From the NCBI RefSeq assembly GCF_056712565.1, contig NZ_CM160072.1: a stretch of DNA of 64,000 nucleotides. One strand, given 5' to 3'. Under the pieces are notes generated by a model. The model had not been told where the DNA came from, searched no databases, and saw only the letters and a list, made by a program, of their open reading frames with translations. The position numbers were made by a program, and so were the translations under genes. Positions 2,702 through 55,548 of the stretch are shown here, piece by piece (the stretch's first letter is position 1; every line of letters begins with the position of its first letter).

Positions 2702-3643
2702 ATGAAGCTGATACGCGGCATACATAATCTCAGCCAGGCCCCGCAAGAAGGGTGTGTGCTGACTATTGGTAATTTCGACGGCGTGCATCGCGGTCATCGC
2801 GCGCTGTTACAGGGCTTGCAGGAAGAAGGGCGCAAGCGCAACTTACCGGTGATGGTGATGCTTTTTGAACCTCAACCACTGGAACTGTTTGCTACTGATA
2901 AAGCCCCGGCACGGCTCACCCGGCTGCGGGAAAAACTGCGTTATCTTGCAGAGTGTGGCGTTGATTACGTGCTGTGCGTGCGTTTTGACAGGCGTTTTGC
3001 GGCGTTAACCGCGCAAAACTTCATCAGTGATCTTCTGGTGAAGCACTTGCGGGTAAAATTTCTTGCCGTAGGTGACGATTTCCGCTTTGGCGCTGGTCGT
3101 GAAGGCGATTTCTTGTTATTACAGAAAGCGGGCATGGAATACGGCTTCGATATCACCAGCACGCAAACTTTTTGCGAAGGTGGCGTGCGTATCAGCAGCA
3201 CCGCCGTGCGTCAGGCGCTTGCGGATGACAATCTGGCTCTGGCAGAAAGTTTACTGGGGCACCCGTTTGCCATCTCCGGGCGTGTAGTCCACGGTGATGA
3301 ATTAGGGCGCACTATAGGTTTCCCGACGGCGAATGTACCGCTACGCCGTCAGGTTTCCCCGGTGAAAGGGGTTTATGCGGTAGAAGTGTTGGGCCTTGGC
3401 GAAAAGCCGTTACCCGGCGTTGCAAACATCGGAACACGCCCAACGGTTGCCGGTATTCGCCAGCAACTGGAAGTGCATTTGTTAGATGTTGCAATGGACC
3501 TTTATGGTCGCCATATACAAGTAGTGCTGCGTAAAAAAATACGCAATGAGCAGCGATTTGCATCGCTGGACGAACTGAAAGCGCAGATTGCGCGTGATGA
3601 ATTAACCGCCCGCGAATTTTTTGGGCTAACAAAACCGGCTTAA
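2702..3643 (+). CDS. ribF: Bifunctional riboflavin kinase / FMN adenylyltransferase
   Basis: 313 aa ORF MKLIRGIHNL...; upstream of ileS. Confidence 0.95.
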   Translation: MKLIRGIHNLSQAPQEGCVLTIGNFDGVHRGHRALLQGLQEEGRKRNLPVMVMLFEPQPLELFATDKAPARLTRLREKLRYLAECGVDYVLCVRFDRRFAALTAQNFISDLLVKHLRVKFLAVGDDFRFGAGREGDFLLLQKAGMEYGFDITSTQTFCEGGVRISSTAVRQALADDNLALAESLLGHPFAISGRVVHGDELGRTIGFPTANVPLRRQVSPVKGVYAVEVLGLGEKPLPGVANIGTRPTVAGIRQQLEVHLLDVAMDLYGRHIQVVLRKKIRNEQRFASLDELKAQIARDELTAREFFGLTKPA

Positions 3644-8570: not shown

Positions 8571-9485
8571 ATGCGTTTACCTATCTTCCTCGATACAGAC
8601 CCCGGCATTGACGATGCCGTTGCCATTGCCGCCGCGATTTTTGCCCCCGAACTCGATCTGCAACTGATGACCACTGTCGCGGGTAATGTTTCGGTAGAGA
8701 AAACCACCCGCAACGCCCTGCAACTGCTGCATTTCTGGAATGTGGATATTCCGCTTGCCCAGGGCGCTGCCGTACCACTGGTTCGTGCGCCGCGCGATGC
8801 GGCATCTGTACACGGTGAATCGGGAATGGCTGGCTATGACTTTGTTGAACACAACCGTCAGCCACTGGGTATACCGGCGTTTCTGGCAATTCGTGATGCC
8901 CTGATGCGTGCGCCAGAGCCCGTTACCCTGGTGGCCATCGGCCCGTTAACCAATATTGCGCTGTTACTTTCACAATGCCCGGAATGTAAGCCGTATATTC
9001 GCCGTCTGGTGATCATGGGCGGTTCTGCTGGTCGCGGCAACTGCACACCAAACGCCGAGTTTAATATCGCTGCCGATCCAGAAGCGGCAGCCTGTGTCTT
9101 CCGTAGCGGCATCGAAATCGTCATGTGCGGTCTGGATGTCACCAATCAGGCAATATTAACCCCTGACTATCTCGCTACTTTGCCGGAATTGAATCGCACC
9201 GGAAAAATGCTACACGCCCTGTTTAGCCACTACCGTAGCGGCAGTATGCAAAGTGGACTACGTATGCACGATCTTTGCGCTATCGCCTGGCTGGTGCGCC
9301 CGGAATTGTTCACTCTCAAACCGTGTTTTGTCGCGGTAGAAACTCAGGGTGAATTTACCTCAGGCACGACGGTTGTTGATATCGACGGTTGCCTGGGCAA
9401 ACCAGCCAATGTACAGGTGGCGCTGGATCTGGATGTGAAAGGCTTCCAGCAATGGGTGGCTGAGGTGCTGGCCCTGGCGCTCTAA
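8571..9485 (+). CDS. rihC: Non-specific ribonucleoside hydrolase RihC
   Basis: 304 aa; N-terminal DTDPGIDDA nucleoside hydrolase motif. Confidence 0.9.
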
Positions 9486-9507
9486 TAATAAAACAAGGAA
9501 GTGTTCT

Positions 9508-9873
9508 ATGACGTATGGAGAAGCGTATCTGGAAGGGTGGAAAAACATCTTTAATTATGAAGGTGTTTCCAATCGCTTCGAGTTCTGGTCGTTTATGATT
9601 GGTAGTGGCGTTATCTGTCTGCTTCCGCTTTTATGTTGGTGGTTAGCGGTAACAATTAACAATGACTATGGTGTTTTCATTTTTTTTGCGCTGCCCGCGT
9701 CATTTATTTTAACGTTGATTTTTGCCATACCGGCGATAGCGTTAGCCGTCAGAAGGATGCACGATATCGGATATTCAGGGTGGTGGGTTACCATTGTCGT
9801 GTTGATCCCTGTTACGGGCGTAATTCTGCTTATACTGTGCTGCCTGCCGTCAAAGTCACAAGACCAGGCATAA
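9508..9873 (+). CDS. DUF805-family small inner membrane protein (strain-variable gene)
   Basis: 121 aa; three predicted TM helices; RRMHDIGYSGWW motif characteristic of DUF805/YhaH-like proteins; strong SD aaggaag 6 nt upstream of ATG. Confidence 0.75.
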   Translation: MTYGEAYLEGWKNIFNYEGVSNRFEFWSFMIGSGVICLLPLLCWWLAVTINNDYGVFIFFALPASFILTLIFAIPAIALAVRRMHDIGYSGWWVTIVVLIPVTGVILLILCCLPSKSQDQA

Positions 9874-51991: not shown

Positions 51992-52837
51992 ATGGCTGAA
52001 GCGCAAAATGCTCCCCTGCTGCCGGGATACTCGTTTAACGCCCATCTGGTGGCGGGTTTAACGCCGATTGAGGCCAACGGTTATCTCGATTTTTTTATCG
52101 ACCGACCGCTGGGAATGAAAGGTTATATTCTCAATCTCACCATTCGCGGTCAGGGGGTGGTGAAAAATCAGGGACGAGAATTTGTCTGCCGACCGGGTGA
52201 TATTTTGCTGTTCCCGCCTGGAGAGATTCATCACTACGGTCGTCATCCGGAGGCTCACGAATGGTATCACCAGTGGGTTTACTTTCGTCCGCGCGCCTAC
52301 TGGCATGAATGGCTTAACTGGCCGTCGATATTTGCCAATACCGGTTTCTTTCGCCCGGATGAAGCGCACCAGCCGCATTTCAGCGACCTGTTTGGGCAAA
52401 TCATTAATGCCGGACAAGGGGAAGGGCGCTATTCGGAATTGCTGGCGATAAATCTGCTTGAGCAATTGTTACTGCGGCGCATGGAAGCGATTAACGAGTC
52501 GCTCCATCCACCGATGGATAATCGGGTACGCGAGGCTTGTCAGTACATCAGCGATCACCTGGCAGACAGTAATTTTGATATCGCCAGCGTCGCACAGCAT
52601 GTCTGCCTGTCGCCGTCGCGTCTGTCGCATTTGTTCCGCCAGCAGTTAGGGATTAGCGTATTAAGCTGGCGCGAGGACCAGCGCATCAGTCAGGCGAAGC
52701 TGCTTTTGAGCACCACCCGGATGCCTATCGCCACCGTCGGTCGCAATGTCGGTTTTGATGATCAACTCTATTTCTCGCGAGTATTTAAAAAATGCACCGG
52801 GGCGAGTCCGAGCGAGTTTAGGGCAGGTTGTGAATAA
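51992..52837 (+). CDS. araC: Arabinose operon regulator AraC, C-terminally shortened (281 aa instead of 292)
   Basis: ORF 51941..52837 trimmed to ATG 51992 ([35 protein letters not shown]...); ends ...[12 protein letters not shown]; the missing tail EKVNDVAVKLS-stop is found 1.8 kb downstream at 54663..54698. Confidence 0.9.
52826..52834. repeat. Left copy of the 9-bp direct repeat GGTTGTGAA flanking the araC-yabI insertion
   Basis: Exact 9-mer also present at 54654..54662; both copies lie in the araC codons Gly-Cys-Glu. Confidence 0.7.
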
Positions 52838-53351
52838 TAAGAAAGAAGGGGGGGAACCCCCTTGCTTTCTTCATCTGACGTTATTTATATATTTCACGGG
52901 GGATTAATTTTAGTTATTTTTAGTTGAATCGTTTTACCTGAATTATTTTTTTTCTTGATAAAATATCGACAACGATTTCTTTTTGTAAAAATAAAACGAA
53001 GGCTTATGTATCGGGATACCCATCATGAACATATTGTCCGGTTGCATCAGGAGAATATATCAAGCGGTTTGTTCATCGTAGGAACACCACATTGAGCGGT
53101 TATGGCAGGCACTTCACGCCACCATAAATGCCGTTCGATGTGGCAGTTGTTGAAAAAAGTACGGCATTCTATGAAAAACGCCAGTTACTCCCTCAGAGGA
53201 GAACATGGTCTGGCAAAAGTGTAGCGGCATCAGGCGCAGCTATCTTTGTAAATTCATTCATAAAATGAATTGTATACAAAAAAATATTGAAAAATAATAT
53301 TTTTCCTTATTGATATTATTTGCTATACGTTTTTTTTGAGGGGAGATTGTG

Positions 53352-54200
53352 ATGAGCAAACGTAACGATATTACTGATGGAATATTTGCAACAACGAAAA
53401 AGTATGGATTAGTTTATACCGAAGAGTTAGGTTGGATCGATTTGGGGCATGCTCAGGGACAAGATGCCAGAATATTAAAAAGAAAATTGGAGCAAGAACA
53501 TTTTTCAACATATTACGATGAATTTCATGATTGGTATTTTCCTGTTGATTATCATCAGGAAATGGGAATTCGGAAAAAAATATTAGGAGTAGATCTTACA
53601 TTTCATACCGGTGTTTATACGAAGGTTATGGTTCGTTCATGTCTTTCACCCACTCTTAAAGCAAGAGTTGCCTTAACGTTAATGTATGGAACTGCGAAGA
53701 GGTTTGAAGCATGGCAAAACTCATTTATTTTTAACTGGTATACTGATAGCGGATTTAGTGCAGAAGATTTAGTCTCAGACTTGATTGGTTTTTATCGTGT
53801 ATTTGGAACAGGCCCCGATCCACTTTTATTGGCAAAACCTTTATCTTACACAAAAGCCTTACAAATATGGGATACATATGGAGCGCCAGGGAATTTTAAA
53901 AATACTGAGTTTACGCCATTCTTATTTACAACCCATCCTCCTTTTAAAAAAAATCAACTAATAAAAAAGAAGCTTCCAGAATGGTTAAATTATATAAAGC
54001 CATTAGATGAGTCTTTTTCAATATTGTTATATAATCAATATAATAATAGACCTGTTACTAATTATTATAAAGATAAAAACAGAATAAATCATGAGTTGTA
54101 TAGTTCATTATCAAGTTCGGGAGCTATAAAGTTTTCAGAATCTCCCTTTGAAAGACCGCTTTTTCTTTTCTTAAACCCTCATTATCCGCACAGGTCGTGA
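53352..54200 (+). CDS. Hypothetical protein, 282 aa, no signal peptide or TM segment (island gene A)
   Basis: ORF 53349..54200; ATG 53352 preferred over GTG 53349 (SD gaggggag 7 nt upstream); MSKRNDITDGIFATTKKYGLVYTEELGWIDLGHAQG...; I cannot assign a family from sequence alone. Confidence 0.6.
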   Translation: MSKRNDITDGIFATTKKYGLVYTEELGWIDLGHAQGQDARILKRKLEQEHFSTYYDEFHDWYFPVDYHQEMGIRKKILGVDLTFHTGVYTKVMVRSCLSPTLKARVALTLMYGTAKRFEAWQNSFIFNWYTDSGFSAEDLVSDLIGFYRVFGTGPDPLLLAKPLSYTKALQIWDTYGAPGNFKNTEFTPFLFTTHPPFKKNQLIKKKLPEWLNYIKPLDESFSILLYNQYNNRPVTNYYKDKNRINHELYSSLSSSGAIKFSESPFERPLFLFLNPHYPHRS

Positions 54201-54206
54201 GTAGAG

Positions 54207-54629
54207 ATGTCAAAATATATTTATATTTTATTATCATTTTTAGTTTTATTCTTTATATTTTTCTATGCTTATATCTCATTGATGTCAAAGGAACATCACT
54301 ATACACAGCATGAACTTTCCCCATTTTTCCTTTATACGCCAGAGAGTTTGCGAAATTTGCCAAACATATCAAACGTAGCCGAGTATAGCTATTACTATAA
54401 TGTTGATGATATGCAAACAAGAGTGATTGTTACATGGCGAAATATAGATAACATTTTTCTTCAGAAAGCAAAGCTAATAGATTTTTTGAAAAGAATGGGA
54501 CCGAGTCTACAAAACGATTGTATATGGTTTTTTCATGATAAAAGTGATTATGCAAATAATTTCCAGCGTTATTGCATCATTGAGCACCGTGATTCTCTGC
54601 AGGTGGAATATTTTGAGACTATCGAATGA
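54207..54629 (+). CDS. Hypothetical small membrane-anchored protein, 140 aa (island gene B)
   Basis: Starts 6 nt after gene A stop on the same strand; N-terminal hydrophobic segment IYILLSFLVLFFIFFYAYISL followed by a ~115-aa soluble domain. Confidence 0.55.
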   Translation: MSKYIYILLSFLVLFFIFFYAYISLMSKEHHYTQHELSPFFLYTPESLRNLPNISNVAEYSYYYNVDDMQTRVIVTWRNIDNIFLQKAKLIDFLKRMGPSLQNDCIWFFHDKSDYANNFQRYCIIEHRDSLQVEYFETIE

Positions 54630-54653
54630 TAGGCAGAGGGTGTCTTTTGTGCC

Positions 54654-54662
54654 GGTTGTGAA
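54654..54662. repeat. Right copy of the 9-bp direct repeat GGTTGTGAA
   Basis: Followed in frame by GAAAAAGTGAATGATGTAGCCGTCAAGTTGTCATAA encoding EKVNDVAVKLS-stop, the displaced AraC C-terminus. Confidence 0.7.
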
Positions 54663-54783
54663 GAAAAAGTGAATGATGTAGCCGTCAAGTTGTCATAATT
54701 GGTAACGAATCAGATAATTGACGGCTTGACGGAGTAGCATAGGGTTTGCAGAATCCCTGCTTCGTCCATTTGATAGGCACATT

Positions 54784-55548
54784 ATGCAAGCATTGCTGGA
54801 ACACTTTATTACCCAATCCACCGTGTATTCATTGATGGCGGTGGTGTTGGTGGCCTTTCTGGAGTCGCTGGCGCTGGTCGGTTTGATTCTACCCGGTACG
54901 GTGCTGATGGCGGGGCTGGGAGCGCTGATTGGTAGCGGTGAGTTAAGTTTCTGGTACGCCTGGCTGGCGGGGATTATTGGCTGCCTGATGGGCGACTGGA
55001 TCTCCTTCTGGCTGGGCTGGCGTTTTAAAAAGCCGTTGCATCGCTGGTCATTTCTGAAGAAGAACAAAGCATTACTCGATAAAACCGAACATGCGCTGCA
55101 TCAGCACAGCATGTTCACCATTCTGGTCGGTCGTTTTGTCGGTCCGACGCGTCCGCTGGTGCCAATGGTGGCGGGAATGCTGGATCTCCCGGTGGCAAAA
55201 TTTATTACGCCGAATATTATCGGCTGCTTGCTGTGGCCACAGTTTTACTTCCTGCCGGGGATTCTGGCGGGTGCGGCGATCGATATTCCTGCCGGGATGC
55301 AGAGCGGTGAGTTTAAATGGTTGCTGCTGGCAACAGCGGTGTTTTTGTGGGTTGGAGGCTGGCTGTGCTGGCGGTTATGGCGCAGCGGTAAAGCGACTGA
55401 CCGTTTGAGTCATTATTTGTCCCGCGGTCGTTTGTTGTGGCTGACGCCGTTGATTTCTGCCATCGGCGTGGTGGCGCTGGTGGTGTTAATTCGCCACCCG
55501 TTGATGCCGGTGTATATCGATATTTTGCGTAAAGTGGTTGGGGTTTAG
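54784..55548 (+). CDS. yabI: DedA-family inner membrane protein YabI
   Basis: 254 aa polytopic membrane protein. Confidence 0.9.
   Translation: MQALLEHFITQSTVYSLMAVVLVAFLESLALVGLILPGTVLMAGLGALIGSGELSFWYAWLAGIIGCLMGDWISFWLGWRFKKPLHRWSFLKKNKALLDKTEHALHQHSMFTILVGRFVGPTRPLVPMVAGMLDLPVAKFITPNIIGCLLWPQFYFLPGILAGAAIDIPAGMQSGEFKWLLLATAVFLWVGGWLCWRLWRSGKATDRLSHYLSRGRLLWLTPLISAIGVVALVVLIRHPLMPVYIDILRKVVGV

Follow-up and report, generated by a model that had tools for sequence, protein, structure and literature searches.

The locus described here lies in a 64,000-nucleotide stretch of contig NZ_CM160072.1 (assembly GCF_056712565.1), hereafter called the window, from an Escherichia coli chromosome of the B2/extraintestinal pathogenic (ExPEC) type. 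Between araC and yabI, the window carries an AT-rich islet with two genes, here named A and B, whose products are both listed as 'hypothetical protein' in RefSeq (WP_000044501.1 and WP_000049681.1, respectively). The two genes are on the same strand, separated by 6 nt, and encode proteins of 282 and 140 amino acids, just as a first-pass annotation made from the nucleotide sequence alone had delimited them. The AT richness remarked on in that annotation is substantial: GC content is 0.30–0.34 over genes A and B and 0.30–0.41 in the islet, compared with ~0.55 in the flanks. The pair is probably an orphan, Hcp-linked module of the type VI secretion system (T6SS), consisting of an effector directed at lipid head groups (A) and a periplasmic immunity protein (B). 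The features from which this proposal proceeds are the following:

53338–53345, plus strand: Shine–Dalgarno-like GAGGGGAG, 6 nt 5′ of the gene A start codon (sequence reading)
53352–54200, plus strand: gene A, encoding a 282-residue soluble protein with a CapCone-1 domain (Lipocone superfamily), predicted T6SS cargo toxin (open reading frame, annotation, and family evidence)
53430–53453, plus strand: helix-2 active-site motif G27-W-I-D30-L-G-H33-A, with Gly at −6, xD from −4, and the catalytic His (35-sequence alignment)
53706–53717, plus strand: helix-3 active-site residues E119 and Q122 in RFEAWQ (invariant in the 35-sequence alignment)
53748–53789, plus strand: helix-4 motif S133-G-F-S136-A-E-D139-L-V-S142-D143-L-I-G146 (35-sequence alignment)
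54207–54629, plus strand: gene B, encoding a 140-residue membrane-anchored, periplasm-facing α/β protein of putative PsbP/MOG1/DcrB-like fold, predicted immunity protein
54213–54284, plus strand: helix at the N-terminus of B (residues 3–26), a transmembrane segment or signal anchor (predicted secondary structure, hydrophobicity, and flank charge)

For gene A, the listing of open reading frames (ORFs) offers a GTG one codon upstream of the ATG at 53352 as an alternative start. The ATG was taken as the right one because it is the RefSeq call, is preceded by the Shine–Dalgarno-like sequence, and opens the N-terminus MSKR, which is invariant in the family. In agreement with the first-pass annotation, the translation is devoid of any hydrophobic segment, signal peptide, or transmembrane segment and contains one single cysteine (RSCLSP). 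This cysteine was considered as a catalytic residue and rejected because it is not conserved: in an alignment of 35 members of the family, the short forms have glycine at the same position.

Searches of Pfam, NCBIfam, PADLOC, and PHROGs returned no significant match for either protein. The only Pfam signal for A was a weak one to DUF4056 (PF13265; E = 0.4, 10.4 bits), whose alignment (query 14–146 to model 63–183) spans the catalytic core. DUF4056 was also the sole Pfam family matched by the 35 relatives of A, 22 of them at E ≤ 0.1 and one at E ≤ 0.001 (best value 1.8e-6). Assignment of A to DUF4056 was, thus, rejected; with an E value of 0.4, the protein is related to that family and lies outside it. 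A literature search on DUF4056 led to the description of the Lipocone superfamily by Burroughs, Nicastro, and Aravind (bioRxiv, then eLife 2025; PMC12419801), which defines three 'CapCone' families in the same clade as the lipid II phosphatase toxin TelC. There, DUF4056 is named 'CapCone-DUF4056', a sister family of A, which is not among the toxin-tip families in the authors' list (PMC12419801). Residues 3–152 of A are identical, but for A104V, to the 150 residues of CAR16209.1, an entry of the authors' own file for CapCone-1 (CapCone-1.tsv; PMC12419801, Figure 1-source data 1); because of this listing, A is regarded as a catalogued CapCone-1 domain. In the authors' data, CAR16209.1 has a hydrophobicity score of −0.366, which places it with the soluble domains, as is specified for CapCone-1. 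Many relatives from Enterobacterales that contain GWIDLGHA and DSGFSxEDLVSDL are also listed in the CapCone-1 file, and none of the other family files contains them. At the level of A, there is no difference from CapCone-1; the full signature and the genomic contexts (see below) are shared. The earlier statement that neither protein belongs to a characterized family, thus, fails for A, which is catalogued, albeit computationally, and stands for B, for which there is no Pfam or NCBIfam family and which appears as 'PsbP/Mog1' in the paper's context data.

How well the active site is preserved was read from the 35-sequence alignment. In helix 2, G27, D30, and H33 are invariant, which fits the published CapCone signature of a Gly six residues before the active-site His and an xD/DK motif from −4. 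The equally invariant E119 and Q122 are located at the end of a helix (residues 100–122) in the AlphaFold2 model of A (predicted local distance difference test score, pLDDT, 82.5); the CapCone signature calls for a conserved glutamate in helix 3 and for another polar residue close to where this helix ends (PMC12419801). In helix 4, S133, F135, S136, D139, and S142 are invariant, D143 and G146 are nearly so, and all positions are at least 90% conserved. The signature for this helix comprises S/GxxSxx before the active-site Asp, an aromatic residue before the Ser at −3, a small residue and Asn at +3 and +4, and Gly near the helix end (PMC12419801). The A family follows it except at position +4, where it has Asp (Asn in one member) and the clade usually Asn. 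In the model, residues 139–151 form a helix. The CapCone fold has been described as a β-hairpin clasp whose additional strand runs into helix 2, a 'cap' over the active site, and a four-helix cone core (PMC12419801). The secondary structure of the AlphaFold2 model contains a short hairpin leading into the helix with the active-site His, and a long hairpin, which may be the 'cap'.

By analogy, CapCone-1 proteins, A included, are predicted to attack phosphate-linked lipid head groups. The only member of the clade to have been assayed is TelC (PMC12419801), which Streptococcus intermedius secretes via its type VII secretion system (T7SS/Esx). TelC and A share the ClaspCone-CapCone-TelC clade and an equivalent His/Glu/Asp pocket (as laid out in PMC12419801). 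The activity of TelC is restricted to the extracytoplasmic space, and this is also where its immunity protein, TipC, operates. The TelC–TipC pair, therefore, served as the template for the proposed mechanism of A and for the location of immunity.

Conservation of the A–B pairing among homologues had been named in the first-pass annotation as a check on the module, and the pairing proved to be almost universal. It was counted at 80 loci from reference genomes with hidden Markov models (HMMs) of both families, positions being taken from the HMM alignment coordinates. A match to the B family lies directly 3′ of A, on the same strand, for 78 of the 81 A genes; of the other three, two lack a partner, and for one the contig leaves no room for a second gene. 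A and B are, thus, paired beyond chance, and their stop and start codons often overlap by 4 or 8 nt. A word-indexed search identified 307 relatives of A across Enterobacterales and B only in E. coli; the genes 3′ of the A homologues revealed the reason, namely that B is a single family which diverges fast. An exhaustive profile search yielded 732 representative relatives of A, mostly standalone proteins in which the domain begins at residue 1. Outside Enterobacterales, the module is present in Vibrio, Cellvibrio, Alteromonadaceae, Exilibacterium, Thiobius, and a metagenome-assembled genome of Burkholderiales, and several genomes harbor three to four paralogous A–B pairs.

The neighborhoods of the homologues, for which a survey of T6SS, phage, and defence contexts had been suggested, connect A to delivery systems for toxins. 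When the neighboring ORFs of the 80 loci were clustered, a protein of ~160 amino acids was the sole recurrent one besides A, B, and the generic ABC ATPase and LysR families. It is Hcp/TssD, as five representatives scored 119–188 bits against TIGR03344 (cutoff 58.9). In 8 of the 80 loci, hcp immediately precedes A in the same orientation, and in two more it is adjacent on the opposite strand. In Buttiauxella, which has the closest long-form relatives of E. coli A, the gene order is araD-hcp-A-B-polB. In a few relatives, the domain is part of a larger protein. In one of them (P0269), an RHS core (TIGR03696, 72.7 bits) is followed by an A-like domain, which, thus, constitutes the C-terminal tip of an Rhs protein (Rhs-CT), and another sequence (P0248) is an orphan Rhs-CT copy of the A domain. 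The core domain of extracellular contractile injection systems (eCIS), DUF4157 (PF13699, E = 5e-32), is fused ahead of an A-like domain in P0265, and LysM is fused to it in P0256 and P0270. In the CapCone-1 context network of the Lipocone paper, RHS(94), DUF4157(21), and HCP(8+8) are recorded (PMC12419801). The PsbP/Mog1-type gene 3′, the Hcp gene 5′, and the fusions to Rhs and DUF4157 were recovered here independently, and they agree with that network.

Large genes 5′ of A at other loci were considered as VgrG or Rhs carriers, but the N-termini of their products looked housekeeping-like by eye (glmU/glmS, secD/F, bioC/D, flhB/A, and AcrB-like). At one Serratia plymuthica locus (L048, 7–7437), a 2,476-residue ORF with a nonribosomal peptide synthetase-like N-terminus ends just 5′ of one A–B copy; the A ORF there appears to be N-terminally extended (288 amino acids; compare P0093), probably an annotation artefact caused by an upstream in-frame start. 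A Salmonella orthologue within the T6SS cluster of Salmonella pathogenicity island 6 (SPI-6) was also sought; the 69%-identical Salmonella protein is instead encoded between araC and yabI, as in E. coli. An ORF of DUF4056 has been reported in variable region 2 (VR2) of SPI-6 from S. Kentucky (PMC11669294).

The same surroundings bear on the option of an anti-phage or abortive-infection module, which was raised in the first-pass annotation. In this case, a cytoplasmic, lipid-attacking A would be controlled by a membrane sensor B and kill the infected cell. Such a module could well reside on a small AT-rich islet of variable presence (at least 80% of the queried islet-spanning stretch was found in 486 of 5,426 complete E. 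coli genomes) and consist of two genes, one of them for a membrane component; moreover, some Lipocone families (Min-Wnt) serve antiviral immunity (PMC12419801). However, neither A nor B matched any PADLOC family at E ≤ 1 or any PHROG, and their neighbors are housekeeping genes or hcp rather than defence islands or prophages. The domain is, furthermore, found as Rhs tip and as cargo behind an eCIS domain, both of them contexts of inter-bacterial toxin delivery, and CapCone-1 is not among the antiviral contexts in the Lipocone paper (PMC12419801). We, thus, consider a role in phage defence very improbable.

The arrangement resembles that of known T6SS cassettes instead. Effector–immunity pairs of the Tae/Tai type occur in islets with the layout hcp-effector-immunity. 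As in such orphan cassettes, of which the amidase Tae4 with Tai4 is an example, A is a small effector candidate lacking a signal peptide, its periplasm-directed partner is encoded directly 3′, hcp precedes directly in a subset of loci, and the islets are scattered away from the main T6SS cluster. Unlike Tae4, which acts on the peptidoglycan sacculus, A is predicted to target a lipid head group, and unlike the hcp-linked cassettes, the pair in E. coli no longer has, or has at no time had, a neighboring hcp.

The strongly hydrophobic start of B, pointed out before, corresponds to a helix of residues 3–26 in its AlphaFold2 model (pLDDT 95), which continues as a β-α-α-β-β-α-β-β-β domain. Among 72 members of the B family, 97% have the hydrophobic N-terminal helix, and the net charge is +3.0 in its N-terminal flank and −0.6 in its C-terminal flank. 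From this bias, an N-in/C-out orientation is predicted, which would place the domain in the periplasm. In 55 of the 72 members, the ectodomain contains exactly two cysteines. Not one B member matched a Pfam family, and a Foldseek search of AFDB50 with the B model returned only its own uncharacterized family and a few 'DUF943' proteins, which are putative membrane proteins of enterobacteria (e.g., A0ABD5H1Y7 of Citrobacter portucalensis, E ~2e-6). These might represent a related group of immunity proteins that are likewise anchored in the membrane and reside in the periplasm. A BamE-like immunity protein, that is, a two-helix hairpin followed by three β-strands and usually a lipoprotein, was considered for B and dismissed, as the predicted structure differs from this architecture.

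The predicted topology of B also disfavors a classical chromosomal type II toxin–antitoxin (addiction) pair operating within one cell, the other option that had been put forward for the module. Two small neighboring genes in the same orientation, on an islet that looks mobile and contains the remnant of an insertion sequence (IS), would be in keeping with it. Still, the small protein encoded 3′ is membrane-anchored and predicted to be periplasmic, unlike the DNA-binding antitoxins of the cytoplasm; neither A nor B matched a toxin–antitoxin family; and the neighborhoods and fusions suggest secreted toxins. This explanation is, consequently, extremely improbable.

Evidence for the function of B comes from how its gene evolves. 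Between E. coli and Citrobacter, B is 46% and A 70% identical; compared with Serratia-type copies, the values are ~20% for B and ~40% for A. A single A is followed by tandem B genes in Pectobacterium carotovorum, Photorhabdus khanii, and Mixta theicola (L041, ~8694–9560; L065, ~8732–9700; and L085, ~8690–9550, respectively). These tandem genes resemble the orphan immunity arrays of other polymorphic toxins. A B-family gene (HMM E = 4e-7) begins 12 nt after the orphan Rhs-CT version of the toxin, and an unrelated lipoprotein, not B, follows another Rhs-CapCone tip; different proteins, therefore, alternate in the immunity slot. Finally, B is retained in strain CFT073, where A is broken. Two homopolymeric tracts in gene A coincide with frameshift variants:

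53574–53580, plus strand: A7 homopolymer, frameshift site in gene A (alignment of CFT073 with the window)
53946–53953, plus strand: A8 homopolymer in gene A, end point of a truncated variant (alignment of E. coli variants, cluster sizes, and sequence)

In strain CFT073, a 1-nt deletion in the A7 tract splits gene A into two ORFs and leaves gene B intact. A common truncated E. coli variant of A (202 amino acids; P0004, 385 member sequences) stops at the A8 tract, and several independent truncations of A exist among the E. coli variants. The A7 and A8 tracts and the frameshift variants could reflect simple decay, sequencing error in assemblies, or on/off switching of the toxin by slipped-strand mispairing.

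A role of B other than that of an antidote was also weighed. Its putative fold class (DcrB, PsbP, MOG1, and DUF1795) includes the Eag chaperones. Eag/DUF1795-type chaperones are cytoplasmic and encoded 5′ of their effector, whereas B has a membrane helix with N-in/C-out bias and a Cys pair, all of which point to a periplasmic domain, and is encoded 3′ of A in all but three cases; it was, thus, not assigned to them. The Lipocone paper lists partners of the B type under 'PsbP/Mog1' and labels them a 'toxin effector transport mediating domain' diagnostic of T6SS (PMC12419801). Following this label, A would be a T6SS-delivered CapCone-1 toxin and B its PsbP/MOG1-type adaptor or transport factor, with immunity absent, unneeded, or encoded elsewhere. 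An adaptor is, however, difficult to reconcile with a protein that evolves faster than the cargo, is duplicated in tandem, is kept where the cargo is broken, and takes the place 3′ of an Rhs toxin tip, which is the slot of immunity genes. In addition, the islets at the 80 surveyed loci contain no other candidate for an immunity gene. The evidence, thus, favors B being the immunity protein over the transport-domain label of the authors, and a function of B as adaptor is considered unlikely.

A further alternative leaves the weapon out altogether: A and B could be a housekeeping or accessory system that modifies envelope lipids in the producing cell, with B as the membrane partner. According to the Lipocone paper, many families of the superfamily are metabolic enzymes of lipids, peptidoglycan, or exopolysaccharide (PMC12419801); most A–B loci are without any secretion gene, and the paralogous pairs mentioned above would also be compatible with such a role. 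Yet, a soluble A without signal peptide or membrane segment and a periplasm-facing B would reside in different compartments of the producer. The links to Hcp, Rhs, and eCIS, the patchy distribution among strains, the repeated pseudogenization of A only, and the fast divergence of B are, moreover, hallmarks of conflict systems, which renders this alternative quite improbable.

We, thus, return to the effector–immunity pair, the option from the first-pass annotation that is borne out by the hcp links, the Rhs tips, the eCIS/DUF4157 fusion, the near-universal pairing, and the periplasm-facing, fast-evolving partner. As proposed, A would be a standalone soluble CapCone-1 enzyme that is synthesized in the cytoplasm, lacks a signal peptide, and is exported by a T6SS, probably as cargo associated with Hcp, for injection into the periplasm of neighboring Gram-negative cells. 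There, its conserved His33/Glu119/Asp139 pocket would attack phosphate-linked lipid head groups, a function suggested by analogy with the lipid II phosphatase toxin TelC, the sole characterized member of the clade. What is destroyed might be a phospholipid head group or, as the leading candidate by the same analogy, an envelope precursor carried on a lipid (lipid II or a different undecaprenyl-linked intermediate). B would be translated from the same transcript as A, be anchored to the inner membrane by its one N-terminal helix, expose a disulfide-containing α/β domain to the periplasm, and neutralize incoming A in sibling cells.

Several observations weigh against this proposal. Using tblastn with ten Hcp queries, neither hcp nor a remnant of it was found in the islet or the whole window, and no T6SS gene is present in the window, so that the T6SS link is made via homologues only. 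At a majority of the 80 loci, nothing but an A–B pair lies between housekeeping genes, and a T6SS dependence of these pairs is only putative. The literature searched contained no experimental work on any CapCone protein. Because there is no hcp or remnant of it in islet or window, the E. coli pair is termed an orphan. As for a secretion apparatus from which such an orphan could be fired, a large survey reports T6SS-i2 to be present and complete in ~98–99% of the genomes of sequence types ST95 and ST73 (PMC12282107). On balance, the proposal of an orphan T6SS effector directed at lipid head groups and its periplasmic immunity protein is still regarded as probable.

The CapCone-1 family, A itself, and its genomic context were already published in 2025 as computational predictions, so the discovery value of the present analysis is limited in this respect. 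The point at which it departs from that work is B. It is conceivable, but we put it forward only tentatively, that B-type proteins are an unrecognized family of immunity proteins rather than adaptors and that, at the same time, A is the first tractable effector of a Gram-negative T6SS that cleaves or exchanges the head group of a lipid-linked precursor or phospholipid. If so, a toxin chemistry demonstrated until now only for TelC, a toxin of a Gram-positive T7SS, would extend to Gram-negative bacteria. Many B2 ExPEC strains (S88, APEC O1, and ATCC 11775, as well as CFT073 in decayed form) would then hold a T6SS weapon against the lipid carriers or head groups of their competitors, which could be relevant to gut colonization and strain displacement. 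The pair is suited to decide whether the PsbP/MOG1-like partner is an immunity protein or a secretion adaptor. As it is small (1.3 kb), resides in a tractable organism, and comes with natural controls (the empty site in K-12 and the broken toxin next to an intact partner in CFT073), it is also a convenient system for CapCone biochemistry.

The islet as such, which is 100% identical in S88, ATCC 11775, APEC O1-type, and other strains, was delimited by comparison with a K-12-type empty site, in which the gap between araC and yabI is 85 bp. Its features outside genes A and B are the following:

~52835–54653, no strand: AT-rich islet, ~1.8 kb, between araC and yabI, inside the 3′ end of araC (BLAST against the empty site, and GC content)
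52826–52834 and 54654–54662: repeat GGTTGTGAA, one copy at each islet junction (comparison with the K-12-type empty site)
52846–52863, plus strand: GC-rich perfect hairpin AAGGGGGGGAACCCCCTT followed by the T-run GCTTTCTTCA, terminator-like, just past the stop codon of the shortened araC at the left edge of the islet (terminator scan)
53085–53224, plus strand: pseudogene fragment of an IS630-family transposase, 5′ of gene A within the islet (RefSeq annotation of identical S88 DNA)
54645–54698, plus strand: original K-12-type araC 3′ end (terminating in AGCEEKVNDVAVKLS and the stop codon), a displaced noncoding remnant 3′ of gene B (BLAST and sequence reading against the empty site)

In the BLAST alignment, positions 1–542 of the empty site correspond to 52300–52841 of the window and positions 518–1173 to 54645–55300; the displaced araC 3′ end itself was placed at 54651–54698. 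Insertion of the islet has shortened araC (52826–52837 and 54645–54698): AraC has 281 amino acids in the window, ending with RAGCE and the stop codon, compared with 292 in the K-12 type, where the protein continues with EKVNDVAVKLS. AraC of 281 amino acids is also encoded at the related Citrobacter and Salmonella loci; recombination with a Citrobacter-like donor may, therefore, have brought in the islet jointly with this 3′ end of araC. The hairpin next to the shortened araC has T-runs on both strands and resembles a bidirectional intrinsic terminator (putative).

The araC–yabI site also holds orthologous pairs in Citrobacter and in one rare Salmonella lineage. In Leclercia, Trabulsiella, Enterobacter sp. 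ENT03, and Buttiauxella, the pairs are located across the ara operon instead, between araD and polB. Small islets seem to have integrated repeatedly into the flanks of this operon. In Citrobacter and Salmonella, the araD–polB site contains a DUF4751 gene for 128–139 amino acids (L002, 199–585; L088, 4165–4584), which the E. coli window lacks, polB being directly next to araD there. This gene was considered as an orphan B and ruled out, the B HMM giving no match. The IS630 fragment, labeled 'frameshifted; incomplete; missing N-terminus' in RefSeq (3246–3385 of the annotated locus, converted to window positions), lies in a part of the islet with a somewhat higher GC content (~0.39–0.41). In Rahnella, the homologous pair adjoins an intact transposase of the IS4 family (L004, 4363–5685).

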